A stretch of DNA of 64,000 nt, taken from the IMG/VR virus record IMGVR_UViG_3300046328_000530, positions 98 through 64,097 of that record; one strand, written 5' to 3'. This DNA is from a virus (Duplodnaviria > Caudoviricetes). A program made the translations under genes and the position numbers. The notes beneath the pieces are model-generated. The model had not been told where the DNA came from and did not search any database. It saw only the letters and a list, made by a program, of their open reading frames with translations. The stretch's first letter is position 1. Every line of letters starts with the position of its first letter. Of this stretch, positions 1 through 62,921 are shown one piece after another.

Positions 1-319
1 TTGTTACGTTTTTATGCCAGTAAATCATACCTCCTTTTAATCCGAAATAGTTAGCACCCCAAATGATTTGCTTTTTACTTACTCTAAAAAGTTGCTCAAA
101 ATATTCATCATTTGGTATTGCATTATCCCAATTAGTTTTTTTGTAGGTATTGATTTTAGCCATTGATGTTTTTTCGTGCCTATCACTATTTTTGCCATTG
201 TTTTTGTTATCAGCATCAATACCATAAGGTGGGTCAACTATGGCTAAATCATAGTATTTATCAGGTTTACTTTTCATAAACTCAATGCAGTCTATATTAT
301 AAAATTCAATTTTTGCCAT
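1..319 (-). CDS. DNA adenine/N4-cytosine methyltransferase (beta class), N-terminal part; runs off the window start and continues at 64000-63753
   Basis: Manual translation from ATG at 319: MAKIEFYNIDCIEFMKSKPDKYYDLAIVDPPYG...FRVSKKQIIWGANYF. Has the DPPY motif and is a close paralog of the 62922 MTase. Confidence 0.9.
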   Translation of the reverse strand, partial: MAKIEFYNIDCIEFMKSKPDKYYDLAIVDPPYGIDADNKNNGKNSDRHEKTSMAKINTYKKTNWDNAIPNDEYFEQLFRVSKKQIIWGANYFGLKGGMIYWHKNVT

Positions 320-374
320 CCATCTTTTTTTCTTTTTTTTATTTAGTGCTTCGATTAAACATTCTGCTAAAAAT

Positions 375-409
375 CCCTACTGCCTATAACAGCGGTTTTG
401 TGCTATTTT
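375..409 (+). repeat. collapsed attC-like site (inverse core GCCTATAAC, 4 nt, core-like GTTTTGTGC)
   Basis: CCCTACTGCCTATAAC (375-390) is the exact reverse complement of GTTATAGGCAGTAGGG (63677-63692). 395-409 matches the reverse complement of 915-929 at 12/15. Confidence 0.7.
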
Positions 410-857
410 AGGACAGAACCTGCTCAATGACAGATTTTTCAATTATGATACCACGACAATACAATTCGCCATCTTCCATAATGTCAAATGTGGCGTGTGG
501 CAAATCGGACTTGATACGCCAAGAACATTCCAAATCATCAGGACACCATTCTGCGACAACTTCAACTTTTGGTAATTCAAAATCCAATTCTTTGTCGTCC
601 ATAATTTCCTGCACTTCTTTAAAATCATCTTCACTCATAATATCAATTTTACCACCTTTCTTTTTGACAAGTAAAGCCGAACCACCATCGTATGCCCCGA
701 CTTCATCATATACAATACCACGAAATTCTAACAAGTCGTCACTTGCACCAAAGCAAACTAATAGACCGTTTTCCTTTGCCAATTTTTCTTCATCTTTTGT
801 AATTTCATCACGGTATTGGCGACCGTTTAAAAGTTCTGCGAATTGTTCTTTGTTCAT
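408..857 (-). CDS. conserved phage hypothetical protein (cassette cargo)
   Basis: 149 aa acidic ORF with GASDDLLEFRG motif, flanked by attC-like sites. Confidence 0.75.
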   Translation of the reverse strand: MNKEQFAELLNGRQYRDEITKDEEKLAKENGLLVCFGASDDLLEFRGIVYDEVGAYDGGSALLVKKKGGKIDIMSEDDFKEVQEIMDDKELDFELPKVEVVAEWCPDDLECSWRIKSDLPHATFDIMEDGELYCRGIIIEKSVIEQVLS

Positions 858-920
858 TTTTTTTTATTTTTAAATTGTTACTAAATAATTATTTGACACT
901 TGACGAAACCGAAAAAAACG

Positions 921-1050
921 GCACATAACAGGTGTTTGGCAAAAAAGCCCTTTTGTATTTCTATTTGACATTTGTACTAATTTTAAAAATTTGTAATTCT
1001 ATTGAATAGTCGGTTAGGGCTTCTTCGCCAAGCACCCGACCGTTATGGGC
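921..1050 (+). repeat. attC-like hairpin site, 130 bp
   Basis: GCACATAAC-A-GGTGTTTGGCAAAAAAGCCC ... GGGCTTCTTCGCCAAGCACC-CGACC-GTTATGGGC imperfect inverted repeat. Confidence 0.85.
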
Positions 1051-1069
1051 AATTGCAAGAAACACCCTG

Positions 1070-1843
1070 CTAATCGAAAAGCCCTTTTTGTTTTTCATAA
1101 TTTGTTATTAATATTTCTGTTCTACGATTTTTTAAGTTTTTCCTTTCGCCAATTATTATGACATTTAAACCTTGTTCTTTTGCTTGGTTAAGAATAAACT
1201 CATTATCAAATTCACTCATTGCAAATTTGCACCCAGTAGCTTGTAAGCAGTTAAATAAATCAATACTATCCTGTACAGTAAATGAATTGCTATAATTATC
1301 ATTCGTTCCTAAATAGGGTGGGTCGCAATAGAAAAAAGATTTTGCCTCGTCATTCCGTCCGTCCGTGTTAAATGTAAGTGTTTTAAAATATTTTCTAAAA
1401 TCATAATTAGTGAATTTACAATCATTAATCATTTCATATGTTTTGTCAATTACTTTAAAAAAAATGTTTTTGTTTTTTGTGAAGGACAAACTCATTCCAC
1501 TACTCACTACACCAATAGTAGTTAAATTGCTAAAAAATAAAAATCTTAAAGCTTTTTGTATAGGGTCTGTTTGTTCATTACTTTTGTAATATTCAAATAA
1601 ATCCGAATGAATAGGCATTAAATAAAACGCTTTTTCTAATTCTTCTTTTTGATTAATTACGACTTGAAATAAATTAAAAACTTCACTATCCAAATCATTA
1701 ACTACATTATATTTCGCTTTTGGTTTATTAAAAAACATACCACCAGCCCCAAAAAACGGCTCAAAATATATTTTATGGTCAGGAAAATATTTAATTATAT
1801 CCTGTGCTATTGCTTGTTTATTTCCTAATCTTCTTAATATCAT
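1070..1843 (-). CDS. Dam-like (D12 class) N6-adenine DNA methyltransferase
   Basis: RRLGNK, YFEPFFGAG, NDLD, YCDPPY and TEILITNY motifs; likely start MILRRLG at 1843. Confidence 0.92.
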   Translation of the reverse strand: MILRRLGNKQAIAQDIIKYFPDHKIYFEPFFGAGGMFFNKPKAKYNVVNDLDSEVFNLFQVVINQKEELEKAFYLMPIHSDLFEYYKSNEQTDPIQKALRFLFFSNLTTIGVVSSGMSLSFTKNKNIFFKVIDKTYEMINDCKFTNYDFRKYFKTLTFNTDGRNDEAKSFFYCDPPYLGTNDNYSNSFTVQDSIDLFNCLQATGCKFAMSEFDNEFILNQAKEQGLNVIIIGERKNLKNRRTEILITNYEKQKGLFD

Positions 1844-1875
1844 TTGACTAAATTTTGAGTACCCGAAAAGCAACT

Positions 1876-2010
1876 GCCCATAACAAGGGTTTTGCAAAAG
1901 CAGGGCATTAGTGGTTTATTGAACATTTTTACTACTATTAAACATTGTGCTAAATTTGAACTTTCGTACCTTGAAGCCCCACCTTCGGCAATACCCGACC
2001 CGTTAGCGGT
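1876..2010 (+). repeat. attC-like hairpin site
   Basis: GCCCATAAC-AA-GGGTTTTGCAAAAGCAGGGC ... GCCCCACCTTCGGCAATACCC-GACCC-GTTAGCGGT. Confidence 0.85.
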
Positions 2011-2014
2011 AATA

Positions 2015-2383
2015 CTACCATTCCTCACTATCAGGCAACGTATCTTCAAATCTTTCGTGTTGTTCACCGACAATTTTTAAGTCTTTTATATTTTCACATC
2101 GCATCATTGACATTCGCAAACCAATATTATTACCTATACTTAATTGATGATTTAACCAGCCGACACAATGTTCTGCATTTTCGCCAGTATCTTTTGAATG
2201 ATGACAAGCCATTATTTTCAAGGCTCTACCAAATCCAAAATCATTTTCTTTTGCAATAGTATCTTGCAAATTCTTGTGTTTAATCTCACAATATCCATCA
2301 GGAATTTCGTAAGGGTCTGTATCAACTTTCCACGGACATTTTGCACATTGGACAGTTCTTTTAAGTTTAAATTTTTCTGACAT
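2015..2383 (-). CDS. Cys/His-rich phage protein (DUF6283-like), cassette cargo
   Basis: QCAKCPW...MACHHS...HCVGWL pattern. Confidence 0.7.
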   Translation of the reverse strand: MSEKFKLKRTVQCAKCPWKVDTDPYEIPDGYCEIKHKNLQDTIAKENDFGFGRALKIMACHHSKDTGENAEHCVGWLNHQLSIGNNIGLRMSMMRCENIKDLKIVGEQHERFEDTLPDSEEW

Positions 2384-2418
2384 AATAATTCAAAACCCCT
2401 TGTGAATTAAACCGTACT

Positions 2419-2553
2419 ACCGCTAACAAGGGTTTGTAGCAATAGGGGCAGAAGTGCTTTAATTGAGCTGTGTACTTTTAATCAGCTTTTGTGGTAGGTT
2501 GAACAGTAGTGCTATAAATCCCCTATTGCTACAAGCCCAAACCGTTAGGCGAT
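2419..2553 (+). repeat. attC-like hairpin site
   Basis: ACCGCTAAC-AA-GGGTTTGTAGCAATAGGGG ... CCCCTATTGCTACAAGCCC-AAACC-GTTAGGCGAT. Confidence 0.85.
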
Positions 2554-3258
2554 ATTGTAGAGCGACCAGTTCCATATCAAATTGTGTTCTTCGACATTAA
2601 TACAGAATTGACCTGTTGGAAAATCTGAACGAACATATTTTGCCAAAAAAACAACTTTGCCTTTTCGCTCAACACGATAAACCATCCCTTCAGGAAGTTC
2701 AACGCTTTCAATTCCTTTTGTCTTTTCATTTAATAATGGCAAAAGTTGTTCAACTGTTATCGGTTGTCCTTCGTGTAATTGGCGTGGCAGTTGCAATCCG
2801 TATCCAATTGCTTTTGCTCCAAGTTCTTCAAATAAAACACGTTCATTATTTGGCGTGAAATAATCAAAAAACACTATTGGTTCAACTTCAATTCTGTAAA
2901 CAAGTCCGTGAGCTTGTGCCAGCCATTCTCCTGTTATTCTTTCGCCATTGTTTAGCATATCTGTAAAAAGCAATTCGCGTTTTTTTACCCAATCAGAAAA
3001 GTAATGATGTTGTTTATATGGGCTTGTACTTGCTTCATAGCCTGAACGGGTTAAGGCAAATATTTTGTTTTCAAACTTTGCCACGCCAACATTTGAACCA
3101 TCATACTTTTCAAACACTAATATGTTATCGTGCTTATCTCTTGTTTTTAAAGTCAAAATTCGTTCTTGACCTTCTCCAATGTAATAATCCCCTTCGCCTA
3201 ACTTCGAGTTATGCAGGTGTGGGATTGAGCCATAATTTTTTCTTCCTATTGGTTTCAT
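2545..3258 (-). CDS. ATP-dependent RNA ligase family nucleotidyltransferase
   Basis: Motif I FEKYDGSN, GEW, FFD, PEGMV and AKYVR. The stop codon lies inside the GTTA core. Confidence 0.8.
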   Translation of the reverse strand: MKPIGRKNYGSIPHLHNSKLGEGDYYIGEGQERILTLKTRDKHDNILVFEKYDGSNVGVAKFENKIFALTRSGYEASTSPYKQHHYFSDWVKKRELLFTDMLNNGERITGEWLAQAHGLVYRIEVEPIVFFDYFTPNNERVLFEELGAKAIGYGLQLPRQLHEGQPITVEQLLPLLNEKTKGIESVELPEGMVYRVERKGKVVFLAKYVRSDFPTGQFCINVEEHNLIWNWSLYNIA

Positions 3259-3284
3259 ATTTCAAATTTACTGGTTAAAAAACT

Positions 3285-3367
3285 GCGGGTAACAACAGCT
3301 AACCAAAAGTGGGCGAACTTTTACTACTGTATAGCCCGCCTTCGGTTAGCTGCAAAACGTTATGCCT
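3285..3367 (+). repeat. short attC-like hairpin site (about 83 bp)
   Basis: GCGGGTAAC-AA-CAGCTAACCAAAAGTGGGC ... GCCCGCCTTCGGTTAGCTG-CAAAAC-GTTATGCCT. Confidence 0.8.
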
Positions 3368-3599
3368 TATACTTACCGAGAAAGACATGATTGTCTTCAA
3401 AATCCTTTTTCATCCTAAAATGCTTGTGTTCGTAATTGACATTCTGAAAGTGATGTTCGCCATTTTTAACTCCAATATACTTATAGTCAATAAATGAAGG
3501 TAATTGCCAATATCCATCTTTATAAAGGTGATAATGCTTGATTTTAACTTTATCCCCGACTTGTAAATCAGAAAAAGTACAAGGCATAACGTTTTGCAC
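3360..3599 (-). CDS. small hypothetical protein (cassette cargo)
   Basis: 79 aa ORF bounded by a 24-bp near-perfect inverted repeat (3351-3374 / 3575-3598); stop codon in the core. Confidence 0.6.
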   Translation of the reverse strand: MQNVMPCTFSDLQVGDKVKIKHYHLYKDGYWQLPSFIDYKYIGVKNGEHHFQNVNYEHKHFRMKKDFEDNHVFLGKYKA

Positions 3600-3623
3600 A
3601 ATACTACGAAAGTGCGTTAATTA
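3582..3623 (-). repeat. miniature attC-like site of opposite polarity
   Basis: AGGCATAAC-GTTTT-GCAC...GTGC-GTTAATT. The stop codon of the 3617 MTase lies in the GTTA core. Confidence 0.55.
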
Positions 3624-4222
3624 AACCATTTGAGTTCAGTAGTTCCAACAAAACCTTTTTCCCACACATACCAAGCATAAGCAACAGCACTTCCACCTCC
3701 AGCAACCATCTTTTCAAATTCAGCATTTTTTGCACACATCAGCCGAGAACTTGAAACATAAATTGTCTTTGGTGGGTTTGATAGGAATAGATTTTTTCTA
3801 CCTTTCCCTTCCATAAATTGTAATTTCAAAAACATTGCAACCTTGTTTCCTGCTGGTATTATCTGCAATGATTTTTCTACAAACTCCTGTGCATATTTGT
3901 AAGGCGGGTTTGTAATTATATCTCCATTCCATTTAAGGTTATCTATTCCTAAAAAATCTGTTTCTATTTCGCCAAATCCTCTGTCCATCAAATCGCTACT
4001 CCTTACATTATAGCCTTTGCTTTCAAATACCTTGCTTAAATGTCCTTCGCCACAAGCACACTCCCAAATATTTGGCGAAAAAGTTTCAAGTTCTAAAAGC
4101 AATTCGGCTGCTTTCGGTGTGGTTGCATAGTAATCTTCATTCTGCCTTTCTTTATCTGTATGGTTGCTTGCACCTAATGTTTTGTAGATGCTGTTGCTGT
4201 TTCCTGTCCAATCTTTTGTCAT
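3617..4222 (-). CDS. phage N6-adenine DNA methyltransferase (NPPY type)
   Basis: DYYATTP, IWECACGEGHL, DIITNPPY and YAWYVW motifs. Confidence 0.88.
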   Translation of the reverse strand: MTKDWTGNSNSIYKTLGASNHTDKERQNEDYYATTPKAAELLLELETFSPNIWECACGEGHLSKVFESKGYNVRSSDLMDRGFGEIETDFLGIDNLKWNGDIITNPPYKYAQEFVEKSLQIIPAGNKVAMFLKLQFMEGKGRKNLFLSNPPKTIYVSSSRLMCAKNAEFEKMVAGGGSAVAYAWYVWEKGFVGTTELKWFN

Positions 4223-4246
4223 TTCGTTATGATTTAATTAAATTTT

Positions 4247-4444
4247 TTATTTTTTGTATTCATCGGTTATATCCAATGTGGAATTATCCAGAAAGTCTGT
4301 AAGTTTAGATGATTTATAAACAGATAGATTTCGTTCGCCACGAAGGCACATTGATAAGTAGTTTTTTCCAACTCCTATTTTGTCTGCAAGAAAGTAAACC
4401 TTAAATCCAGATTCTCTCACTTTTATCTTTAATGATTCGTTCAT
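4247..4444 (-). CDS. XRE-type helix-turn-helix regulator
   Basis: FLADKIGVGKNYLSMCLRGER HTH pattern. Confidence 0.7.
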   Translation of the reverse strand: MNESLKIKVRESGFKVYFLADKIGVGKNYLSMCLRGERNLSVYKSSKLTDFLDNSTLDITDEYKK

Positions 4445-6445: not shown

Positions 6446-6964
6446 CTACTTCTCTTTATTTTTAGTTACGTCAATAGTTATTTTTACGTCAACACCATTC
6501 TTGAACTCAAGCATCATTCTGATAGCCTTTATCCTATTTTGCTCATCCTTAGTAAAGAAATACTCAGGGTTAGCCACGTAAACACCTCTCTTAACTTGCT
6601 GTAATAGATTCAGTTTAGATAATGTCTGAAACGATATTCTAACCGTATTATCACTATATGGCTTTTTCTTACCTACCTTATGATCTGTAAAGAACTTAAT
6701 AAAACTGCCTCTAGTCAATTCATTATTAGATATATACCCTCCTGTACTCATATTGTACAGAAGCCATTCAAGCAAATTTTTAGCACAACCCTCTATTTTC
6801 ATCAATAAAATCAACGCAGAATGATACCTTTTTACTCCACTAATTGATGAATTAAACCACCCATATTCGTACTCTTTATACTCTTCTCCATCTATACTAA
6901 CAATACAATTGATTTTCTTGACGTACTTTATTGATTTAGTCTTTTTATCCATTTTAATACTCAT
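6446..6964 (-). CDS. RepL-like winged-helix DNA-binding/replication protein
   Basis: TVRISFQTLSKLNLLQQVKRGVYVANPEYF C-terminal wHTH signature. Confidence 0.6.
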   Translation of the reverse strand: MSIKMDKKTKSIKYVKKINCIVSIDGEEYKEYEYGWFNSSISGVKRYHSALILLMKIEGCAKNLLEWLLYNMSTGGYISNNELTRGSFIKFFTDHKVGKKKPYSDNTVRISFQTLSKLNLLQQVKRGVYVANPEYFFTKDEQNRIKAIRMMLEFKNGVDVKITIDVTKNKEK

Positions 6965-6978
6965 GGTAAATATCTATT

Positions 6979-7123
6979 TAAGATAGCCACACTATCCTAT
7001 ATAGGCTGTTTTTAAACAGACTCCCAAAGATACTATATAATATCTTAATTATCAAAGTAAAATTAACAATAAATTCTGTAGTTAAGATAGCCACACTATC
7101 CTACTAAGATAGCCACACTATCC
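6979..7123. repeat. three 19-bp direct repeats TAAGATAGCCACACTATCC (iteron/operator-like)
   Basis: Copies at 6979-6997, 7083-7101 and 7105-7123 (22-bp period). Each contains the dyad GATAG-N5-CTATC. Confidence 0.9.
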
Positions 7124-7710
7124 CAACTATTTAAATAATCGCAGTCAATAGACCCTTAAACCCAATAAACACCGTTTTACAATCCTTATATAATCCAATG
7201 CTTTGCTATTCCTTCCCAACTTATCACAATTATCCATAACCTCATAATATTTTATCTAAATGACGCATATACCAAACTTATACAGAATACCTGACATAAC
7301 TAATTCCAATAATAACTACCAGAGTTAATTACTTAATTAGAAGTGACGACATCGGTAAGAATATCGGACTATCCCACACAGAACACCCCCCTATCTTTGA
7401 AAACCCAACCATGCTACCTGTCAACCGGGTGGGCATGGTTTGTAAATATATTTGATTGCTCAGTTGTATATGGCTAACTACGGCTCAACGATAGCACACA
7501 CTACAGCATGATCATGAGTTACCAGCATCTATTGCGTTGACCATTGCAATACCCAAGCTACGGATCACATCACCAATATAATTTGTTTAAATATCGTTAT
7601 AGCAGAATTAAATTTGGTTGATGCAGCTCGTTAATTAACTACCTTTGCGCATCAGGTAATAATGCCTGATTTAAAATGGCTTATTTTAAAGCGATACAAT
7701 CAATTAAAAT

Positions 7711-8097: not shown

Positions 8098-8200
8098 AAG
8101 TACATACTATATATGTATGCTATTCGATATTTAATATTGAAAATAATTTGGCTGATAATGAGAAAGTTAAGTAATAAAAAGGCACTTTAGTAAAAATAAA

Positions 8201-8232
8201 TTTGGAGAATAAAAAAATCTGCCGTACACTTG
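8201..8232 (+). promoter_or_regulatory. Bacteroidota sigmaA-type early promoter
   Basis: TTTG (8201-8204), 20 nt spacer, TACACTTG (8225-8232); one mismatch to the TAnnTTTG consensus. Confidence 0.55.
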
Positions 8233-8467
8233 TATCGTAGTAACGCAATAGATACTAATCTATAAGTTACTACCCGGTGCTAAGGCGGACAATAGCAGGC
8301 GAGCGAATCGGCCTACATTGATAAGAGTTTACTGTTACTATAAACACATGCCAGGGCGGCAAGCTCTACCGTATGCAGGTTAAAAGCATTTATCATGCAA
8401 ATAGTATGAGTGTAGAAGGAGCGAAGTCTAAAAAACTTGGATGCCTATGGTAGTGTCAACTATCTTC

Positions 8468-8533
8468 ATAAGCATAATGCAGCCTATATAATATAGCCGG
8501 TTACAAGCCCGAATAAATGCAGAGTATGTTTAT
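8468..8533 (+). ncRNA. twister self-cleaving ribozyme, type P1
   Basis: P1 AUAAGCA/UGUUUAU, U^AA site, P2 UGCA/UGCA, P3 CUAUA/UAUAG, CCGGUUACAAGCCCG and GAGUA. Co-linear with the P1 twister consensus (UAA-NNNN-GC...CCGGUNNCAAGCCCG...GAG). Confidence 0.85.
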
Positions 8534-8551
8534 TTATTTAAAAAAGAAATC

Positions 8552-8725
8552 ATGAAAAAATTAATTGTAGCAATGACCCTAATGACAGCACTTAGTAGCT
8601 GTTCGCTTAAAAAAGAAATACCATCAATGGAGTACAGATGTACATACGATGGCAATAGTACAGAGGTGCAATGCTTAAGAGCTTCGGATTCTGATAGTGA
8701 GTATTGCAAAAAACACAAAAATTAA
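8552..8725 (+). CDS. small lipoprotein (57 aa, not in the ORF track)
   Basis: MKKLIVAMTLMTALSS-C lipobox and a Cys-rich mature part. Confidence 0.7.
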   Translation: MKKLIVAMTLMTALSSCSLKKEIPSMEYRCTYDGNSTEVQCLRASDSDSEYCKKHKN

Positions 8726-8767
8726 TCATCAAATAAATAATCATTTTAAAAACTAAAAACTAAAGAC

Positions 8768-15746: not shown

Positions 15747-15886
15747 GCTCCTAACGTTTCGCAGATTTGCGATGGGCGGGATTTAGAAAACGAATTTATC
15801 AACTTAAAACAAAAATTTATATGGAACACGAAACATCATTAAACAACGAAAAACATCGCCTAACAGCAGATTTGCTATTAGGCGAT
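15747..15886 (-). repeat. attC-like site of minus polarity with an internally inverted right arm
   Basis: GCTCCTAAC-GTTTC-GCAGATTTGCGATGGGCG ... CGCC[TAACAGCAGATTTGCTATTA]GGCGAT. Confidence 0.7.
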
Positions 15887-16525
15887 GTTTTTCTCCCACT
15901 TCTCAAAAAATTTGCATCAAATTATGATATGAGAGAATGGATGGCAACCCCTTTCAATGTAGGAAATAGAACGGTTGCGACAAATGGCTATTGCTTATTA
16001 TCAACTCCTTTTCAAGAAGGGTTTAATGATAGAAGCGAAAAAACAAAAACAGTTTATCCTATGGATCATAAGATAAACAAACCTATTCCAGTTGATGAAT
16101 TAAAGCAAAAATTAAAAGAATTTCCTTTAGTGGATTGCTTTGATGAAATTGAAACAACGTGCGATGCTTGTAATGGCGATGGAGAGGTAGAATTTGAGTT
16201 TTATCATAGTGGAAAAACCTATGAAATGGAACACGATTGCCCTGTTTGCGATGGGCAAGGAGTAACAAATACACAATCAAAAACACCAAACGGTAAAAAG
16301 GAACTTGACTACAACAAATTCTTTCAAATTGGTAAGTGCATTTTCAATGTTGCAAGAGTAGAAGAATTGATTTATGTCGCTGACTATTTAAAATCCGATG
16401 TTGTAAATATTGTAAACCAAACGGAGAAAAACAGAGCTTCTTTATTTACAATAAAAGATGTCGAAATGTTGGTAATGCCTATGATGTGTGATGATGAACG
16501 GAATGTCGCTCAAAATATCGCCTAA
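15821..16525 (+). CDS. beta-clamp-like phage protein with inserted CxxCxGxG zinc finger (cassette cargo)
   Basis: VATNGYCL and terminal LVMPM resemble DnaN motifs; CDACNGDG and CPVCDGQG. The start lies inside the repeat and the stop inside the CCTAAC core. Confidence 0.55.
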   Translation: MEHETSLNNEKHRLTADLLLGDVFLPLLKKFASNYDMREWMATPFNVGNRTVATNGYCLLSTPFQEGFNDRSEKTKTVYPMDHKINKPIPVDELKQKLKEFPLVDCFDEIETTCDACNGDGEVEFEFYHSGKTYEMEHDCPVCDGQGVTNTQSKTPNGKKELDYNKFFQIGKCIFNVARVEELIYVADYLKSDVVNIVNQTEKNRASLFTIKDVEMLVMPMMCDDERNVAQNIA

Positions 16526-16675
16526 CGGTTAATTAACAACTAAATTTAATACGAAGATGAATAAAGAAATTTCACAAAGCGATGGCGAATTGGCTTTTAG
16601 TTCATATCATTATGCGACCACACTCTTTTTAATTTTCTGAATATCATATTCTTTTTGTTTTGTGCCAATAAAAAC

Positions 16676-16812
16676 GGCTTATAACAGCGGTTTTAAGAAA
16701 TGGCGGGTTTAGTGATTAATTTAAACATTGTGTGTACTTTTGTGTTTTGGCTTTACCGAAAGTTTTGGCTTGTAAATCCGCAACTTCTTAAAGCCACGAT
16801 ACGTTATATGCC
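16676..16812 (+). repeat. attC-like hairpin site
   Basis: GGCTTATAAC-AGC-GGTTTTAAGAAATGGCGGGTTT ... AAATCCGCAACTTCTTAAAGCC-ACGATAC-GTTATATGCC. Confidence 0.85.
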
Positions 16813-16926
16813 ATTTTAGGGCGACAGTACAAAGATAAGCATTTGTGCTAAAATTTCAACATTTTGATACCACTCCCTACCAAAAAATATGTAACTTTGC
16901 AAATTATAATTTTAATTACAAATTAA

Positions 16927-18747
16927 ATGGCTAACGAAAGCAAAACAGAATTATTAGTTTATGACCACTTCAAGAAATTTGAAGACAAAATAACTATTGA
17001 ACCTAAAAAGTCAAGCAATCCTGCTATTGACAAACTTCTGCAAAATGCTTCCAAAAAAGGAAATTTTAAAGGATACCCTGAATATATTATATCATTTAAT
17101 GAATATCCTGACTTATTAATAGTTATAGAATGTAAAGCACATAATATAAAACACCAAAGCAATACTCCTAAATTTGACAAATATGCGGATTATGCTGTAG
17201 ATGGGGCATTACTTTACGCTTCATTTTTACAAAAAGAGTTTAATGTAATAGCAATTGGAATTAGCGGAGAAACAAAAAAAGATTTAAAAATTTCTCATTT
17301 TTTATTCCTAAAGGAACAAAAAAATTATACTACAATATTTGACGATAAACTTTTAGATATTGATAGTTATGTACAAGGCTTCTTAAAAAGTCCTGAAAAA
17401 TTTAAACAAGACTATGATAGTTTAATCAAGTACTCAAAAGAACTAAACGAAGAACTACAAAATAAAAAAGTAAAAGAAAATCAACGTAGTCTTTTAATAA
17501 GTGGTATTATGATAGCACTTGACAACAGAGTTTTTTCTAAAACATATAAAGAACATACAACACCTAAAGACCTTGCAGACAATTTAGTTACTACTGTAAT
17601 TACTCAATTGAAAAATGCTAAAATTGGAGTGAGTAAACTTGAAAATTTGGAAGTTGCTTATTCATTCATTAAAGTTCACAGTGCATTAGCAAATGAAAAT
17701 GGTGTTTTAGTAAATCTTATTAAAAATATTGATGAAAAGGTAAACAGTTTTATCCGTTCTCATAAATACTTTGACGTATTATCTGAATTTTACATTGAAT
17801 TTTTAAGAAAATCAAATAGCGATAAAGGTTTAGGAATTGTGTTAACACCACACCATATCACGGATTTATTCAACGCAATTGCAGGTACAAATAAAGAAAG
17901 TATAGTTTTTGATAACTGTACAGGAACTTCAGGGTTTCTTGTAAGTGCAATGAGAGCAATGTTTAAAGATGCAAAAGGCGACATTACAAGAGAAGATAAT
18001 ATCAAACAAAAACAACTTATAGGAATTGAAGAACAATCAGATATTTATGCTTTGGCTTGTAGCAATATGTATTTGCAAGGAGATGGAAAAAGCAATTTAA
18101 TTTATGGTAGTTGTTTTGAAGATTTACATATTAAAAAAGTAAAAACTTTTAATCCAAATATTGGTTTTCTAAATCCACCATACAAAGCAAATAAAAAGAA
18201 AGACACAGAAGAATTAGAATTTGTATTGAATAATTTAGAATGTTTAGTGCCTAACGGCACTTGCATTGCAATTATTCCAATGCAGTGTGCTTTAGCTCAA
18301 AAAGGCAAAATACTTGAACTAAAGAAAAAAATACTTTCTAAACATACATTAGAAGCAGTAATGAGTATGCCAGATGAATTATTTTTTAATTCAAACGTTG
18401 GAGTAGTTTCTTGTATTATGGTTTTTACAGCTCACAAAGTACACCCGACAAACAAAGAAACATATTTTGGTTATTGGAAAGATGACGGATTTGTAAAACG
18501 TAAAATAAAAGGGCGTTTTGACGCTTTAAATAAGTGGCAAGGAGTTAAAGAAAAATGGATAGAAAGTTATATCAATAAAAAATCTATTGCAGGAATGAGT
18601 GTAATGAAGTCTATTACTGCAAATGATGAATGGTGTGCAGAAGCATATATGGAAACGGATTACAATTCATTGAATGAAATTGATTTTATAAAAACTATCA
18701 AAGATTTTGTATTTACAAACGAACTATACATTAAAAAATGGAATTAG
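16927..18747 (+). CDS. BcgI-like type IIB/IIG restriction-modification fused endonuclease-methyltransferase subunit
   Basis: N-terminal YPE...IECK nuclease motif, LTPHHI, DNCTGTSGFL and FLNPPY; own -7 box TAACTTTG at 16892. Confidence 0.88.
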   Translation: MANESKTELLVYDHFKKFEDKITIEPKKSSNPAIDKLLQNASKKGNFKGYPEYIISFNEYPDLLIVIECKAHNIKHQSNTPKFDKYADYAVDGALLYASFLQKEFNVIAIGISGETKKDLKISHFLFLKEQKNYTTIFDDKLLDIDSYVQGFLKSPEKFKQDYDSLIKYSKELNEELQNKKVKENQRSLLISGIMIALDNRVFSKTYKEHTTPKDLADNLVTTVITQLKNAKIGVSKLENLEVAYSFIKVHSALANENGVLVNLIKNIDEKVNSFIRSHKYFDVLSEFYIEFLRKSNSDKGLGIVLTPHHITDLFNAIAGTNKESIVFDNCTGTSGFLVSAMRAMFKDAKGDITREDNIKQKQLIGIEEQSDIYALACSNMYLQGDGKSNLIYGSCFEDLHIKKVKTFNPNIGFLNPPYKANKKKDTEELEFVLNNLECLVPNGTCIAIIPMQCALAQKGKILELKKKILSKHTLEAVMSMPDELFFNSNVGVVSCIMVFTAHKVHPTNKETYFGYWKDDGFVKRKIKGRFDALNKWQGVKEKWIESYINKKSIAGMSVMKSITANDEWCAEAYMETDYNSLNEIDFIKTIKDFVFTNELYIKKWN

Positions 18748-19700
18748 TCCCAATACATAAACTATTTACTGTAAAGTATGGTGTTAATCTTGAATTAGTA
18801 CACCTTGAGCAATGTTCAAAAGACGATGAAAACTCTATAAATTTTGTTTCACGTACTGAAAACAATAATGGAGTTTCGGCTTTTGTTATAAAATCAGAAG
18901 ATATAACACCCAATCCAAAACATACGATTTCAGTTGCAGGCGGTGGTTCTGTACTTTCTTCCTTTTACCAAGAAGAAGAATATTATAGTGGAAGAGATAT
19001 ATATTATTTAAAACCACTAACTAATTTCTCAAAATTAGAGATGTTATTTTATGCTTTTTGCCTAACAAAAAATAAATACAAATACAATTACGGCAGACAA
19101 GCAAATAAAACTTTAAAAGATATTTTAGTTCCCTCTAAAATGCCAAAATCTTTTGAAAAATTAGACATAAACGAACTTAATACTTTAAATAGAAAAAGCA
19201 CTTTAAATTCTAATATTGAACTTAATCATAATAATTGGGGGTGGTTTTCATTGAGCGACCCAAGATTATTTAAAATATCGGGAACAAAAACAACACCTTT
19301 ATTAGAACTTGAAGAATTTGGAAAAGGAGAAAAACCATTTGTAACAACACAAGCCAGTAATAATGGGATAGGTGGCTTTTTTGACTTCTCAACAGAAACA
19401 GGAAATGTTTTGACAGTTGATAGTGCTGTTATTGGCTATTGTTCATATCAACCTTTAGACTTTTCAGCAAGCGACCACGTTGAAAAATTAACACCCACTT
19501 TTAGACTAAATAAATACATAGCATTGTTTATAGCGACAATTATCAATAAAGAACAATATCGTTATAATTATGGACGTAAAGCAAGTCAAACAAGACTAAA
19601 AAGAGCTAACATAAAACTTCCTGTAAAGCAAAACGGACAACCCGACTTTGAATATATGGAGAACTATATTAAAACATTACCATATTCAAGCACAATATAA
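18738..19700 (+). CDS. restriction-modification specificity (S) subunit with two TRDs
   Basis: Duplicated NNG(V/I) and YNYGR(Q/K)A motifs and PDFEYMENYIK; overlaps the upstream gene. Confidence 0.88.
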   Translation: MELVPIHKLFTVKYGVNLELVHLEQCSKDDENSINFVSRTENNNGVSAFVIKSEDITPNPKHTISVAGGGSVLSSFYQEEEYYSGRDIYYLKPLTNFSKLEMLFYAFCLTKNKYKYNYGRQANKTLKDILVPSKMPKSFEKLDINELNTLNRKSTLNSNIELNHNNWGWFSLSDPRLFKISGTKTTPLLELEEFGKGEKPFVTTQASNNGIGGFFDFSTETGNVLTVDSAVIGYCSYQPLDFSASDHVEKLTPTFRLNKYIALFIATIINKEQYRYNYGRKASQTRLKRANIKLPVKQNGQPDFEYMENYIKTLPYSSTI

Positions 19701-19718
19701 AACAATAAGAAGAAAAAC

Positions 19719-19856
19719 GGCATATAACAGGGGTTTTGCAAAAAAGCGGGTTCAGTGCTAAATTGAACATTTGGAATTCTAATGAACATTTGTGCTAAAC
19801 CGAACATTTGTGCTTTCTAATCCGCTTCTTCGCAAAGCCACGATACGTTATATGCC
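19719..19856 (+). repeat. attC-like hairpin site
   Basis: GGCATATAAC-AGG-GGTTTTGCAAAAAAGCGG ... CCGCTTCTTCGCAAAGCC-ACGATAC-GTTATATGCC. Confidence 0.85.
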
Positions 19857-19921
19857 TTGCTGACCGTTTCCAATTGAAGTTCCTTGAAGGAAAAACAAAA
19901 AGAAAAAAGCCACCGCACTTT

Positions 19922-20665
19922 TTAAAATAGTTTCGTTTGACATAGTTCTAATTCTAATCGTTTCATTGATTTTTCGTAATACTCTTTATTCATTTCTGCA
20001 CCTATAAAGTTTCGTTTCTCTAAAATACAAGCGTGTGCAGTTGTTCCACTTCCCATATAACCATCAAATACCAAATCGTTTTCGTTGCTGAAGGTTTGAA
20101 TAAGGTATCTAATCAAATCAATTGTTTTTTGTGTTGGATGGTCGTTTTCACTTGTTCTATCTCCATTGCTAAAATCAATTACACTTTGCGGAAAATATTG
20201 GTCATCCACTTTAGTTTTTCCTTCATAGCTTCCGTAATTTGTTGTCGCATTACCTTTTTTACTTCCTTTCATTCGCATTTTACCAACAACCATTTGCGGA
20301 TTATAAGTTGGCAGTTTTCTATAAAAAACTAATATCATTTCGTGGTTTCTCATCGGCATTTTGTTAGCGTTTAAAAATCCAGTTCCTAATGCTTTGTACC
20401 AAATCAAATCATATCTGAAATTCTTTTGGTTGCTCAATATCAATTCACTTGCAAATGGTTGTGTAGCAAAAAATATCATTGCTCCATTTTCTTTTGTTAC
20501 TCGCTCCCATTCAGTCCACATTTTAGGTAAATCGGGCTTTATATCCCATTCGTTTTGAGTGCAACCAAAAGGAGTATCTTGCAAAAGCAAATCAATAGTT
20601 CCGCTTTCAATTTCCTGCAACAATTCGTAACAGTCCTGATTATATATTTTATTTATTTCCACCAT
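19922..20665 (-). CDS. DNA methyltransferase (beta class, N6A/N4C)
   Basis: QDTPFG (DPPY variant), HPTQK, DGYMGSGTT. Confidence 0.9.
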   Translation of the reverse strand: MVEINKIYNQDCYELLQEIESGTIDLLLQDTPFGCTQNEWDIKPDLPKMWTEWERVTKENGAMIFFATQPFASELILSNQKNFRYDLIWYKALGTGFLNANKMPMRNHEMILVFYRKLPTYNPQMVVGKMRMKGSKKGNATTNYGSYEGKTKVDDQYFPQSVIDFSNGDRTSENDHPTQKTIDLIRYLIQTFSNENDLVFDGYMGSGTTAHACILEKRNFIGAEMNKEYYEKSMKRLELELCQTKLF

Positions 20666-20733
20666 TCTTTTTTCTTTTTGTTTTTCTGTTTAGTGTTCCA
20701 ATTGGGCTTTGTGCTTAATAGTCCCGCCCGAAC

Positions 20734-20756
20734 GCATATACTCGAACGTTAGGAGA
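20734..20756 (+). repeat. collapsed attC-like site closing the second array
   Basis: GCATATAC-TCGAAC-GTTAGGAG; the left half matches core GTTATATGC at 19847. Confidence 0.55.
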
Positions 20757-36857: not shown

Positions 36858-38483
36858 TTATTTTAAATTAAAATTTTGTTTAATCCAGTCTAATCTTTGT
36901 TTAGCTGTCAACGACTTAAATTCAGGACTGTTTGTTGCATCTTTAAATTGTTGAAATGTTTTGTCAAAGTTTGCAGTTGGAACATTTTTATTTCCTTTAA
37001 CTGCATCATAAGGTACTTCTACCCCTTTCGTTCCTATAGACCCATCAGAAAAAGTTACAGTTCTTGTCCCATACACTTTGGGATTGAACGTAATATTATT
37101 AGATTTAAACGACTTATGTTTACCCAATAATATTTCTTCTAATTGCCTGAAAGAAAGCTCTGACCCATTTCTCTTATCATTATTACCTAAATCTTTAAAT
37201 ACCGGTACCATTGAAACTGATCCGACATTCATATCAAAAGGTTCTGTATTTATATATGAGTATCCTGTTAATGGGTCTGTAACCTTGCTTGGCTTTATTG
37301 TAACTTTTTCATTATTGAAGTTTTGAGTGAATAGATTAGAACCCTTCTCATTAACCCTACTGCCGTCCTGCCTAATTGTAGGCACATAACTTTCAATATT
37401 GCCTATTGTGACAGGATTAACAACATCATCCTTCTTTTTAAGAGAATTGGCATAATCTAACTTTTCCTTCCAGTTATCTTCTTTCATAGGAAGAACAGAT
37501 TCTGATCTCTTAACCTTTGGTAATATTTGTGTTAACCCTGACTCAATCTCGCTATCCCATATTTGCTTTGCATTCCAATCTTTATCCGCCTTCTCATTGA
37601 CAAATTTTTTAAACTCTATACTATTCTTCTCTTTTATGTTATAAGGAGGTTTAGCTAATTCAGACCGAAAGTTCCTATCTCCATCCCAATCTTCTTCCAA
37701 ACCTTGTACAATAGCCTCTCTACTATTTGGCATGTTTTTTAAATCAGATATGCTATACCCGCCTGTTTTTTTAAATATATACTCAGGAGCACCGAGTGTG
37801 TTCTGCCATTGATTTATTAAGCTTTTAGTTGTTTCTGGGACTAATGATTTAACGGTTTTATATTTTTTATTCCCTAACACATATTCGTCACCATATTGAG
37901 ATGGCGTAACCTTTGATATTACTGAATTAGGATCGAAAGATTTACTAACATAGGGTAGTTGCATACTATTAGCCAAAATATCCTGTAACCTATTTTTTGT
38001 TACAAAATCATGTTGTTTCGCTATACTCTCTGGATCAAAAATTCCAGCACCAGCCTTAGATATTTCAGATTGCTGCTCTAAATAAGGCTTTTCAATTGCC
38101 TCCCTTGTATCATACAAATTCGTGAGCCTGTTCCTGTCAGTCACATACTGTTGGTAGGCTTGCATTTGCTGCGGATTATTTGGATCTGGGTTATATATAT
38201 CCCACCCCTGCTTTTTGTATTCGATTCCTTGATTTATATGCTTATTGGTTAGATCACGTAGCTCATCACTAAATAATTGACCATTTTTTGCTTTAAATAA
38301 ATTGTCCTGATAAGACTTAGCTATTTGTTGCGCTTGTTGCTTGTCAAATAATTGCTGTTGTGCTTGTACTTTTTGGTTATTATCAATAGTATCCAACAGT
38401 TGATTTGCAGCTTGGCTTTGTCCTAAAACAAATGCTGCACCTGTTCCTGATTGTCCGAGTGGTACTGAATTATAGTCTGCCAT
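36858..38483 (-). CDS. internal virion/ejection protein
   Basis: Q-rich N-terminus and operon position. Confidence 0.6.
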   Translation of the reverse strand: MADYNSVPLGQSGTGAAFVLGQSQAANQLLDTIDNNQKVQAQQQLFDKQQAQQIAKSYQDNLFKAKNGQLFSDELRDLTNKHINQGIEYKKQGWDIYNPDPNNPQQMQAYQQYVTDRNRLTNLYDTREAIEKPYLEQQSEISKAGAGIFDPESIAKQHDFVTKNRLQDILANSMQLPYVSKSFDPNSVISKVTPSQYGDEYVLGNKKYKTVKSLVPETTKSLINQWQNTLGAPEYIFKKTGGYSISDLKNMPNSREAIVQGLEEDWDGDRNFRSELAKPPYNIKEKNSIEFKKFVNEKADKDWNAKQIWDSEIESGLTQILPKVKRSESVLPMKEDNWKEKLDYANSLKKKDDVVNPVTIGNIESYVPTIRQDGSRVNEKGSNLFTQNFNNEKVTIKPSKVTDPLTGYSYINTEPFDMNVGSVSMVPVFKDLGNNDKRNGSELSFRQLEEILLGKHKSFKSNNITFNPKVYGTRTVTFSDGSIGTKGVEVPYDAVKGNKNVPTANFDKTFQQFKDATNSPEFKSLTAKQRLDWIKQNFNLK

Positions 38484-38485
38484 TA

Positions 38486-53402: not shown

Positions 53403-53981
53403 ATGATAAATATTCTGGTAAGAACGAGCTATCGTCCAAAATCATTTAAAATATTACTCGATTCTATACAAAACCAAACATTCAAAAACATTCGCATTAT
53501 TATAGGATATGATGATGACAGGGCTTTATCTTATATTCCAAAAGAAATCGAATCTATTAGACTTCATAAAGACTTATCAAAACCTTTTTTTTACGATAAT
53601 TACTGTAATGTATTAAAAAATTTGGTTAAAGAAGGTTGGTTTGTTTTTATTGATGATGATGATATTTTATTAGACAACACATCTTTAGAACGTTTAAATA
53701 AAGAGCTTAAAGGCAAAGATGGGATAATATGCCAATTCAGCAGAGGAGGTCGGTTAAAGCCATCTAATGAGCAAATAAAGAATCATGAAATACGAAGAAG
53801 CAAAATAGGGATGCCGTGCCTTATACTTCACCAATCGCATAAAAACATGGTTGACTTTGACGGAAGTGTAGGTGCTGCCGATTATACATGGATAAAAAAA
53901 GTGTCCAGGAAAATAAAGTTAAAGTTTGTACCCATAGTGCTTTCTTACTCCCATAAAAGAGGATACGGAACTACCGAATAG
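53403..53981 (+). CDS. GT2-family glycosyltransferase
   Basis: INILVRTSYRP, FVFIDDDD, ADY. Confidence 0.8.
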   Translation: MINILVRTSYRPKSFKILLDSIQNQTFKNIRIIIGYDDDRALSYIPKEIESIRLHKDLSKPFFYDNYCNVLKNLVKEGWFVFIDDDDILLDNTSLERLNKELKGKDGIICQFSRGGRLKPSNEQIKNHEIRRSKIGMPCLILHQSHKNMVDFDGSVGAADYTWIKKVSRKIKLKFVPIVLSYSHKRGYGTTE

Positions 53982-54594: not shown

Positions 54595-54625
54595 ATTCCG
54601 TGTGCTATTATAAGTACATTTTTAT

Positions 54626-62920: not shown

Positions 62921-62921
62921 C

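Follow-up and report, generated by a model that had tools for sequence, protein, structure and literature searches.

The DNA analysed here, a window of 64,000 nucleotides that covers bases 98 to 64,097 of a 64,097-base record, represents the nearly whole circular genome (about 64 kb) of a freshwater phage. It carries two arrays of accessory genes whose cargo consists mostly of orphan DNA methyltransferases, and the units of these arrays are parted by hairpins of 73 to 126 nucleotides that are bounded by TAAC and GTTA. These units are probably cassettes in a phage-borne system that resembles an integron. Anatomy, covariation, polarity, junctions and co-occurrence are observed in the sequences, whereas circular intermediates, a cleavage point, recombinase activity and the identity of the acting enzyme are what we infer from sequence comparisons. 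The best reading is that of integron-like cassettes with crossover at G|TTA, and not that of a classical IntI/attC integron. To our knowledge, integrons are bacterial platforms, and reports from phages are limited to stray attC clusters and a few captured integrons.

Two arrays and their matching unit ends

The record ends overlap by 7 nucleotides and a methyltransferase ORF reads in frame through the joint, and therefore the unit that crosses the window ends (63677/390) is legitimate. The 64 kb genome encodes six orphan methyltransferases and one type I HsdM/HsdS pair. Neither IntI nor any other tyrosine recombinase was found in this genome, as the models TIGR02249 and PF00589 were unmatched and no such protein is among 67 ORFs.

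With five long and two short sites in 4.3 kb and no integrase, the layout would be that of a CALIN, in which two or more attC sites cluster with no integron integrase close by, if these sites count as attC. One end of array 1 is a degenerate palindrome (62890-62921, GTTGCGTATA..TATACGCAAC), and its GTTA at 62909 serves as left border for the unit that comes first (62909-63560, minus strand). This unit carries an N6_N4 DNA methyltransferase ORF (62922-63665, start tentative) and is followed by a long hairpin (63557-63680; folded; 49.1 bits, E 5.8e-08) that, like all long hairpins of the window, is on the plus strand. The unit crossing the window ends is on the minus strand and comprises a first part (63677-64000) with the C-terminal part of an N6_N4 methyltransferase (63753-63998), approximately 90 nucleotides that fall outside the window between 64000 and 1, and a second part (1-390) with the N-terminal part (2-319), a leader and the right-border TAAC (387-390). 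A short plus-strand hairpin follows this TAAC (387-432). It lacks GTTA, and thus the next unit (390-929), whose gene at 408-857 belongs to phrog_25176 with no assigned function, has no matching left border.

The remaining cassettes of array 1 are all on the minus strand. A long hairpin (926-1045; 103.6 bits, E 1.6e-19) precedes the cassette for a D12-class N6-adenine DNA methyltransferase (1042-1884, gene 1070-1843), and a second (1881-2005; 65.9 bits, E 1.6e-11) separates it from a cassette for a DUF6283 protein (2002-2427, gene 2015-2383). After a third (2424-2547; 61.4 bits, E 1.5e-10) comes an RNA ligase cassette (2544-3293, gene 2545-3258) with its stop codon within TAAC. A shorter, 73-nucleotide site of the same family (3290-3362; 50 bits, E 3.8e-08) then leads to a small cassette (3359-3590) with a 79-residue ORF (3360-3599) that matches no family. 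The border word of this small cassette, GTTATGCCTTAT, is also present in Flavobacterium phage 6H. A minimal TAAC..GTTA hairpin of 33 nucleotides on the plus strand (3587-3619) precedes the last unit (3616-4246), which encodes a DNA methyltransferase (3617-4222, phrog_799) and has a degenerate right border.

Array 2 starts with a degenerate site in the opposite orientation (15752-15880, minus strand; 44.1 bits, E 6.5e-07) that overlaps a perfect palindrome (15848-15893). The adjoining plus-strand unit for a Zn-finger (DnaJ CXXCXGXG-like) protein (15878-16526) has reversed G/A polarity, consistent with its plus-strand gene. A long hairpin (16682-16806; 82.2 bits, E 5.5e-15) is followed by a two-gene plus-strand cassette (16803-19728) encoding the type I methylase HsdM (16927-18747) and the specificity subunit HsdS (18738-19700), which are on the strand opposite to that usual for the site orientation. 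The top match to the hairpin family model (19725-19850; 104 bits, E 1.3e-19) precedes a minus-strand N6_N4 methyltransferase unit (19847-20751, gene 19922-20665) whose right border and hairpin have decayed (GCATATAC..GTTA, only 16 bits).

A first-pass annotation of this DNA had proposed that cores match across each cassette rather than within each hairpin. For each unit we compared the 12 nucleotides that follow GTTA with the 12 that precede the next TAAC, the latter taken as reverse complement, which gave 7 matches for unit 62909/63560, 12 for 63677/390, 10 for 1042/1884, 9 for 2002/2427, 5 for 2544/3293, 11 for 3359/3590, and 10 each for 15878/16526 and 16803/19728 (mean 9.25/12, n=8). The two flanks of a single hairpin match at only 3, 6, 4, 3, 4, 3, 12, 3, 9 and 8 positions (mean 5.5/12, n=10), and non-cognate border pairs average 4.37/12 (n=103, maximum 10). 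The observed sum of 74 was reached in none of 100,000 resamples of eight non-cognate pairs. The proposal therefore holds, and the eight border pairs quoted for it were all found in place, with each second coordinate being the final base of TAAC. Hairpin ends do usually disagree, although three hairpins of array 2 agree internally, and the RNA ligase and 62909/63560 units are real exceptions to the matching of cassette ends, as had been noted.

The 14-16 bp of complementarity described earlier is likewise present. However, it reflects in part a family consensus, which among the matches listed (127 related sites) reads ACTGCnn(a)TAAC on the left, with a near-complement on the right in which T replaces C at position -7. 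Of the left flanks, 92% have C at this position, and 89% of the right flanks, once complemented, have T. The position accounts for the single A/G mismatch noted in four units. Because the flanks follow this consensus, only some of the matching positions are cassette-specific. In the window and in the related sites, the first bases of a cassette complement the start of its own site, which is the signature of integron-type chimeric sites.

A hairpin family and an associated recombinase

TAAC and GTTA are invariant in seven window sites and in 126 related hairpins, and the lengths of 73-130 nucleotides agree with the general form of attC, in which inverted AAC/GTT cores bound an imperfect palindrome of about 57-141 nucleotides. 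The outer stem of approximately 12 bp includes the invariant TAAC/GTTA, flanking bases and a conserved T·G wobble (gene-sense strand). It is followed by an asymmetric internal loop, with 4-6 nucleotides (mostly 5) on one side and 1 on the other, inside which are an 18-pair covarying stem and a loop of 50-70 nucleotides. The family has conserved non-Watson-Crick pairs in place of bulged single bases, and the sites presumably fold as single strands.

The related hairpins come from a narrow sequence pattern that matched at least 127 viral stretches, yielding 126 distinct hairpins. Because the pattern fixed some positions, part of the conservation seen at A16, A19 and the TTT/AA runs comes from the pattern itself. 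Among 50 of the 126 hairpins, 96.5% of cells pair versus 76.9% after shuffling, both sides change in 12 of 22 pairs, the observed score was reached in none of 500 shuffles, and slid controls gave 27-45%. A covariance model built only from 50 hairpins of other viral contigs recovered seven plus-strand sites in the window (49-104 bits, E 1e-19 to 6e-8) and the one degenerate minus-strand site (44 bits). No Rfam family matches the window sites. The hairpin type at 2424-2547 is about ten-fold over-represented in freshwater metagenome contigs matched to the window; these metagenome data consist of contigs, and no circle or excision joint was seen.

Members of this family are widely distributed among viral contigs. 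For 47 of 83 independent viral sites there is a downstream partner, ending in TAAC, with 9/12 or more matching positions, when approximately 1.2 would be expected. In almost every case that could be called, the genes run on the other strand relative to the pattern: among 129 sites, 76 have at least one minus-strand flank and four have a plus-strand flank, with 40 having too little flank on both sides and nine uncalled (six undecided on both sides, three undecided on one and too short on the other). DNA methyltransferases make up 29 of 95 cassette ORFs, and 52 of the 95 have no Pfam match.

In related phages, a Xer-like tyrosine recombinase accompanies these hairpins. Four of five large hairpin-bearing records contain exactly one PF00589 gene, and in eight loci the recombinase directly follows a cassette-end TAAC. 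We examined 80 loci out of 542 viral relatives of this recombinase, the covariance model being run on 20 loci picked for carrying cassettes and afterwards on the remaining 60. It detected 129 hairpins in 42 of the 80 loci, all of them upstream of the recombinase and on the opposite strand to it, and none downstream in 442 kb. A conserved junction, formed by the cassette end, TAAC and then TAnTATATGTAA, precedes the recombinase by about 55 nucleotides. The sequence ATTnCnnnTAAC|TAnTATATGTAA is found in 48 of 66 distinct upstream regions, most often 55 nucleotides before the ATG, and at 18 of 37 junctions the 12 nucleotides preceding TAAC have an upstream GTTA partner matching at 9/12 or more.

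The window phage has neither this recombinase nor the TAAC|TAnTATATGTAA site that precedes it at the array end. A pattern search allowing up to three mismatches gave 13 junction-motif matches in the window versus 10.6 expected by chance. By eye, the sense strand at 62890-62921 has TAAC and then a weak likeness to the motif (7 of 11 specified positions), which that search missed. With both recombinase and attachment site lacking, the cassettes of this phage would be either moved in trans or frozen.

With the integron-integrase model, which has a cut-off of 265 bits, the array-side recombinases reach only 155-161 bits, and they align to its profile in two pieces that omit approximately positions 181-238, the IntI-specific region. 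Their closest relative of solved structure is a XerA-like protein. A branch with support 99 sets the viral recombinases apart from 77 chromosomal relatives in Bacteroidota, and arrays are absent beside the best 80 such relatives. The IntI-specific domain comprises about 35 residues near patch III, and Escudero reportedly tied this insert in 2020 to recombination of single-strand sites. It is likewise described as needed by IntI for such sites (Cury et al. 2016, PMC4889954). Since the phage recombinase lacks the insert, its recognition of the hairpins is putative.

Comparison with three viral contigs locates the breakpoints. In L026, the window's D12 methyltransferase unit is found again; homology begins at GTTATGGGC, covers the gene, its TAAC border and the next hairpin, and ends at CGTTA with unrelated neighbours on both sides; this is the recurrence of one cassette in different company that the first-pass annotation had called for. 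The RNA ligase cassette of L003 is 89% identical to that of the window, the shared sequence begins exactly at GTTACCCGCAG, and its own ends match at 13/14, unlike those of the window copy. Together with the partners at 47 of 83 sites and the junction in 48 of 66 recombinase loci, these contigs make four comparative results that support the earlier suggestion of crossover at or near G/TT from units that would once have been circular. They also fit a scheme in which the cutting and rejoining of cassettes takes place at G|TTA or right beside it, which would make each in-array hairpin a hybrid.

Some exchanges differ. The last 8 or so nucleotides preceding TAAC in the window RNA ligase cassette have been replaced, and they are identical to the border at 16511-16526; thus, not every exchange maps to G|TTA. 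L030 carries a different gene, and what it shares with the window is limited to a leader, border and hairpin. The hairpin at 1881-2005 departs in its 3' arm from the L026 and L030 copies. The RNA ligase border change and this arm divergence look more like homologous exchange. Hairpin sequences are common to unrelated cassettes, and assemblies break at them.

Proposed exchange and alternatives

In the proposed mechanism, a tyrosine recombinase would cut TAA|C on the sense strand, equivalent to G|TTA on the other, and because of the position of this cut the cassette would exit as a circle with one fully paired site. The circle would re-enter beside the recombinase-proximal attachment site, leaving every array hairpin a hybrid while the two ends of each cassette remain complementary. 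For the window phage, a co-infecting phage or prophage may move the cassettes in trans, unless they are frozen. The enzyme is probably not IntI, and is more likely a member of the phage-specific Xer-like clade found downstream of the array end in other phages.

An unlikely alternative is that the hairpins are conserved intergenic modules, comparable to the PeSLs of T4-type phages, between which homologous recombination shuffles cassettes with no need for a site-specific enzyme, using proteins that the phage encodes (ERF, a Gam-like protein, RuvC and NinB). The sharing of hairpins between unrelated cassettes, the L030 case, and breakpoints within a hairpin arm or about 8 nucleotides before TAAC all agree with it, and PeSL exchange with mini-circles is documented in passages of Arbiol et al. 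(2010, PMC2839356). However, it gives no reason for complementary unit ends at variable positions, for the covarying stem with its conserved wobble, or for a dedicated recombinase with a fixed TAAC junction. The hairpins are also not terminator-like: window positions 1-4400 contain one terminator-like site, when 2.4 would be expected, and it lies away from the long hairpins. Promoter-like sites number 23 versus 16.2 +/- 4.3 expected, and the PeSL arrangement of a sigma-70-type early promoter and then a terminator stem-loop was not found. Homologous exchange may well operate alongside the site-specific route.

It is also rather improbable that the units are common integron cassettes bearing genuine attC sites, in a phage-captured CALIN serviced by a host bacterial IntI. 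The AAC/GTT cores, imperfect palindrome, length and chimeric-site signature all fit the attC description in passages of Cury et al. (2016, PMC4889954). In addition, parts of Qi et al. (2023, PMC9892861) report methyltransferase-cassette CALINs in virulent phages, including one Flavobacteriia phage in which HattCI detected a site built like those described here. Yet that site, P12002L_attC1 of Polaribacter phage P12002L, was missed by the Infernal step and was the sole failure of six with IntI1, with no verified IntI1 x attI1 junction (same passages). The IntI-less window genome, the recombinase scores, the strongly asymmetric internal loop, genes that face the recombinase rather than away from it, and the array-free chromosomal relatives also argue against this reading.

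That the structures act in RNA, as transcript insulators or processing sites whose unit ends pair within mRNA while recombination is incidental, is highly improbable. In its favour, site orientation tracks gene direction, and most positions that break Watson-Crick pairing would still allow G·U on the sense strand (three wobbles versus one mismatch). Against it, U-tracts are absent, Rfam has no matching family, the HsdM/HsdS genes are on the other strand, and neither the joining of unrelated neighbours exactly at GTTA nor the association with recombinase and junction is explained.

Within the preferred reading of site-specific cassette exchange, the system most likely shuffles anti-restriction genes, because the cargo is mostly DNA-modification enzymes. 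We give an even chance to the broader proposal that Bacteroidota phages possess their own integron analogue, in which a distinct clade of small, insert-less Xer-like recombinases, the TAAC|TAnTATATGTAA site and polar arrays of cassettes bounded by large, covarying hairpins (12-bp outer stem, fixed T·G wobble) serve to trade DNA-modification and other counter-defence genes between phages, with recombinase-less arrays as reservoirs serviced in trans. If so, phages have their own cassette-exchange machine for swapping counter-defence genes, paralleling the defence cassettes that bacterial integrons carry, and this would explain how the phages of one host group build and renew batteries of orphan methyltransferases against restriction. 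It would also mean that cassette recombination at hairpin sites arose a second time, possibly independently, and without the domain thought to enable it in IntI, making the origin of single-strand recognition directly testable. The signature of a TAAC..GTTA hairpin with matched unit ends offers a finder for counter-defence genes without assigned function in viral metagenomes.

Relation to known systems

As in integrons, a Xer-related tyrosine recombinase is located at one end of a polar array in the related phages and adjoins a separate attachment site, each site is an imperfectly palindromic sequence whose AAC/GTT cores are invariant, crossover would fall at G|TT, and the cassettes are small and mostly single-gene. 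Canonical attC sites are about 57-141 nucleotides long; their central spacer is unpaired and roughly symmetric, and they have single extrahelical bases. The phage outer stem of about 12 bp with its T·G wobble differs from the 7-bp R box of attC, as the 1 versus 4-6 nucleotide internal loop would from the attC spacer as generally known. The phage recombinase differs in its missing insert and low integrase score and in lying downstream of cassette genes that point to it. The system was found in viral contigs but not with the 80 closest chromosomal relatives. Extrahelical bases and an unpaired central spacer are named as attC features in passages of Cury et al. (2016, PMC4889954), where chimeric sites after cassette insertion, which make cassette ends match each other, are already textbook knowledge for integrons.

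The phage CALINs in passages of Qi et al. (2023, PMC9892861) resemble the window in having an integrase-less, Flavobacteriia-type phage genome with methyltransferase cassettes. The P12002L_attC1 site is laid out in the same way (TAAC, 2 nt, stem, loop, stem, 6 nt, GTTA), and a P12002L methyltransferase unit has inverted ends of approximately 30 bp. Unlike the reading given here, those passages treat the sites as bacterial attC. Section 3.4 and the supplement passages describe no dedicated recombinase, extended stem or conserved wobble, and Flavobacterium goes unmentioned in the text and supplement examined (Qi et al. 2023, PMC9892861). Our family model had no match in P12002L at E 0.01.

Comeau and colleagues are said to have treated PeSLs as regulatory cassettes of T4-type phages in 2014. 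Passages of Arbiol et al. (2010, PMC2839356) describe them as promoter-plus-terminator units exchanged by homologous recombination that can yield mini-circles. PeSLs and the present hairpins are alike as conserved stem-loop modules on either side of accessory genes, in the variable parts of phage genomes, with gene shuffling by exchange between modules. Unlike PeSLs, the window hairpins lack a terminator signature, have complementary unit ends and a covarying stem, and belong to a family linked to a site-specific recombinase with a fixed junction.

Finally, the pdif modules of Acinetobacter plasmids use short, double-stranded 28-bp sites and the host XerC/XerD. As generally understood, they share with the phage arrays a Xer-family enzyme and gene modules bounded by inversely oriented recombinase sites, whereas the sites described here are hairpins of 73-126 nucleotides and the enzyme is phage-encoded.

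Matched gene borders in the window

Sites were located in the window by reading the intergenic gaps and by applying a covariance model built from 50 hairpins of other viral contigs. A constrained-fold scan was dropped because chance structures in coding DNA swamped it. On the + strand, each site opens with TAAC and closes with GTTA, and the gene or genes between a GTTA and the next TAAC constitute a unit, or cassette. Long + strand sites are located at 926-1045, 1881-2005, 2424-2547, 3290-3362, 16682-16806, 19725-19850 and 63557-63680, with short or decayed sites at 387, 3587-3619, 15848-15893, 16523-16531, 20628-20751 and 62890-62921. The model recovers exactly the seven long sites, all on the + strand (E values of 1e-19 to 6e-8), and additionally matches a single degenerate - strand site at 15752-15880. 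A terminator signature is absent from the window hairpins.

The units form two arrays. Array 1 extends from 62.9 kb via the record joint to 4.2 kb with its genes on the - strand. It carries methyltransferases (two N6_N4, one D12 and one further), an RNA ligase, a DUF6283 protein, a 79-aa ORF and a protein of unknown function. Array 2, at 15.7-20.8 kb, holds the type I pair HsdM/HsdS along with a Zn-finger protein and one more N6_N4 methyltransferase. Up to three copies of a motif resembling GAACATTTGTGCTAAA are found inside hairpin loops (for example, at 19755-19815 and 1925-1965). Outside hairpins, the motif is present at 16838-16870 and 63690-63705, and cassette leaders have it too. A promoter or operator that travels with the cassettes is one possible role.

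A first-pass annotation of the sequence had proposed that the two ends of each gene unit are complementary, whereas the two ends of a single hairpin usually disagree. All of its border words are present in the window, and both statements were borne out. Over the 12 nucleotides beyond the cores, same-unit ends match at a mean of 9.25 positions (n=8 units) versus 4.4 for non-cognate end pairs (n=103), and none of 100,000 resamples matched the observed same-unit sum. The two flanks of one hairpin agree at a mean of 5.5 of 12 positions (n=10 sites), although three of the ten score high. The two units that it set apart are real exceptions. Likewise, the unit 63677/390 that spans the window ends is legitimate, because its N6_N4 DNA methyltransferase ORF is continuous in frame from record end to record start once a 7-nt overlap of the record ends (window 63994-64000 versus the 97 nt preceding window base 1) is removed. 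This overlap and the uninterrupted ORF point to a genome of about 64.09 kb that is probably circular or circularly permuted, and the record, classed as linear and 88% complete, is likely a complete circular assembly. The IMG/VR record has 64,097 bases, of which 98-64097 make up the window.

Pfam and PHROG scans reveal the gene content of a tailed phage, including a large terminase, virion proteins, a crAss-type muzzle-like domain and a lysozyme, along with ERF, a Gam-like protein, RuvC, NinB, SSB and replication initiators. The terminase is only distantly related (20-25% identical) to those of Cellulophaga, Flavobacterium, Maribacter and Tenacibaculum phages. A close relative of the replication-initiator protein was not found in viral contigs. 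No Rfam family reaches its gathering score in the window, and no tRNA was found there. Three copies of TAAGATAGCCACACTATCC at 6980-7125, within a 746-nt gap adjoining a RepL-like gene (6446-6964), look like replication-origin iterons. Between divergent early genes, 670 nt at 8098-8767 lack any ORF of at least 60 aa and contain many local hairpins; the stretch has no Rfam match. Three family-2 glycosyltransferases, an FkbM-type methyltransferase and a Stealth-like protein (53403-55937 and 59629-60366) adjoin the terminase, and this cluster is an unusual cargo for a 64 kb phage.

A hairpin family shared with other viral contigs

Hairpins with 72% identity to those of the window were found by blastn in Flavobacterium psychrophilum phages 6H, 2A, 1H and FPSV. 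In phage 6H, small genes, among them an RNA ligase homologue, lie between such hairpins, and some of the border words are identical to those of the window. A narrow pattern drawn from the hairpin arms is present in at least 127 viral contig stretches, with 129 distinct sites and 126 distinct hairpins among the matches listed.

In the alignment of 50 hairpins, pairing across a structure of 4 + 18 pairs is 96.5% versus 76.9% with shuffled partners, and changes on both sides occur in 12 of the 22 pairs. This level of covariation was reached by none of 500 shuffles, and slid partners pair at 27-45%. On the pattern strand, the layout is TAAC, one nucleotide, ten pairs, A·C, two pairs, A·C, six pairs, a loop of 50-70 nt, the return strand, 4-6 nt (five in 109 of the 126 listed hairpins) and GTTA, where some positions are set by the search pattern but the covarying positions are not.

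Conservation extends outside the cores. Over 8 nt at 127 sites, the left flank has the consensus A-C-T-G-C-n-n-a before TAAC (C at -7 in 92%), and the complemented right flank has A-T-T-G-C-n-n-A (T at -7 in 89%), indicating an outer stem of about 12 bp. The A/G difference noted in the first-pass annotation is thereby a conserved family feature, a T·G wobble on the gene-sense strand and a C·A mismatch on the other. Of the matching end positions, only some are specific to the cassette, and the rest reflect the family consensus. Where positions vary, agreement between the flanks of a single hairpin is 22-44%, which is no better than chance. A TAAC-anchored partner matching the right flank at 9 or more of 12 positions lies within 2 kb downstream at 47 of 83 sites, versus about 1.2 expected when flanks are exchanged between loci, and the partner distances of 158-1163 nt are cassette-sized.

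Genes near the sites nearly always read against the orientation of the pattern; among the rare exceptions is the window's HsdM/HsdS unit. Pfam matches were obtained for 43 of 95 cassette ORFs from viral loci, a few of which appear twice owing to overlap within two pairs of loci. DNA methyltransferases account for 29 of the 43 (20 N6_N4, 4 C5, 3 Dam, 1 D12 and 1 MT-A70), and further matches include a TET-associated glycosyltransferase, PAPS-reductase-like proteins and several DUFs.

Recombinases beside the arrays of other phages

Exactly one PF00589 tyrosine recombinase gene is present in four of five large hairpin-bearing viral records, and relatives of it lie within 2 kb of hairpins in further loci. 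None was detected in the window genome by domain and profile scans or by tblastn with these proteins. The platform recombinases, which end the cassette arrays, are Xer-like and 266-298 aa long. Their top NCBIfam match is XerA (195-206 bits, under the cut-off of 220), and the nearest solved structure is a XerA-like protein. With the integron-integrase model (cut-off of 265 bits) they score 155-161 bits, aligning as two pieces that omit the IntI-specific region. In one viral contig (L141), a second tyrosine recombinase (326 aa, PF00589; 3454-4431) resides inside a matched inverted-end unit 1.6 kb upstream of the platform recombinase.

A profile search yielded 542 viral relatives of the recombinase, and 80 of these were retrieved together with flanks of 6 kb. 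In these 80 loci, units with complementary ends are 12 times denser upstream of the recombinase (98 in 303 kb) than downstream (12 in 442 kb). With the hairpin model, 42 of the loci yield 129 sites, in runs of up to ten, and every site lies upstream of the recombinase on the other strand; many of the other 38 loci have short upstream sequence. A junction consisting of a cassette-type flank, TAAC and TAnTATATGTAA is present in 48 of 66 distinct upstream regions, most commonly 55 nt before the start codon. Among 37 junctions with enough upstream sequence, the flank of 18 has a GTTA partner (at least 9 of 12 positions) at a distance of 205-2614 nt. Occurrence of the junction motif in the window is not above chance.

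A FastTree tree, used only for its main viral/bacterial split, separates 66 viral proteins and one MAG-contig protein whose locus has the junction from 77 Bacteroidota relatives (support of 99). Arrays are absent at the chromosomal relatives in Bacteroidota: 377 kb of upstream sequence holds two inverted-end units, and the junction pattern occurs in 7 of 78. Downstream there are 15 inverted-end pairs, five of them in one locus. In these Bacteroidota contigs (L217-L296), conserved variants of the near-palindrome TATACGTATAATATACG, unlike the phage junction, occur about 40-100 nt upstream of the Xer-like gene, which very often lies no more than a few hundred bases from a contig end. The near-palindrome may be the chromosomal relatives' own recombination site, beside an assembly-breaking repeat.

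Probable cassette exchange and known systems

The D12 methyltransferase unit recurs beside other neighbours, as the first-pass annotation had suggested should be sought. Viral contig L026 is homologous to the window from GTTATGGGC to CGTTA, a stretch that takes in the gene, its TAAC border and the hairpin that follows; on either side the sequences are unrelated. These limits define the mobile block, in + strand terms, as TTA..gene..TAAC-hairpin-G, a composition like that of an integron cassette. With contig L030, the common part is only the leader, border and hairpin, and the attached gene differs.

The best-supported reading of these borders is cassette exchange via a fully paired form of the site, with crossover at or near G|TT as originally proposed. 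We infer that single-strand folding, an exact cut, circles and enzyme activity would be parts of this mechanism. The end of the L026 block at GTTA agrees with the proposed position. In contig L003, the RNA ligase is 89% identical, the shared sequence begins at GTTACCCGCAG and the ends match at 13 of 14 positions. The final ~8 nt ahead of TAAC in the window copy differ from L003 and equal the border at 16511-16526, and therefore some exchanges fall inside the flank. For this unit, homologous recombination fits better than one fixed cut, and homologous exchange between conserved hairpins is probably a further contributor. Single-strand transposition of the IS200/IS605 type and insertion of the hairpins in the manner of MITEs were rejected, since ends match across the gene rather than the hairpin, no target duplication is seen and an HUH gene is absent.

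Contigs from freshwater metagenome runs contain all or parts of the array and end at hairpins. In one, 359 and 1880 are linked by 27 letters of other sequence, and several have different neighbours attached at 2001 and at 2411-2423. Cassette neighbourhoods thus vary among related phages; the contigs bear on excision neither for nor against, and parts without coverage carry no meaning. Summed contig depth at 2401-2600, which holds the hairpin at 2424-2547, is 3-6x (X5, X7, X9) or >10x (X3) that of neighbouring bins, so this hairpin type is common to many other genomes in those freshwater samples.

Chimeric in-array attC sites are textbook features of integrons (Cury et al. 2016, PMC4889954). 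Qi et al. (2023, PMC9892861) describe 17 integrase-less attC clusters in phages, including the methyltransferase cassettes of Polaribacter phage P12002L, and report that IntI1 recombined five of six phage attC sites tested. The failing site, P12002L_attC1, was called by HattCI only. Judged by eye from their primer table, it has the layout of the window hairpins; the hairpin model does not match P12002L, and thus the link rests on this layout. The gp54 methyltransferase unit of P12002L (38100-38940) has inverted ends of about 30 bp (GTTACCTA..TAATTTTTAAAAACCGCC), much longer than those of the window. The nearest phage-specific analogue is the PeSL cassette of T4-type phages, outlined by Arbiol et al. 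(2010, PMC2839356) as homologous exchange between promoter-terminator units. The window hairpins lack a terminator signature. We found no description of a phage cassette platform of this kind in the openly readable literature.

The array-end junction beside the recombinase has the same layout as integron attI. Unlike the integron arrangement, the cassette genes are upstream of the phage recombinase and share its orientation, and the cut implied on the sense strand differs (TAA|C). The window is a recombinase-less member of this phage cassette system, which differs from classical integrons in enzyme, site geometry, gene polarity and residence in phages.
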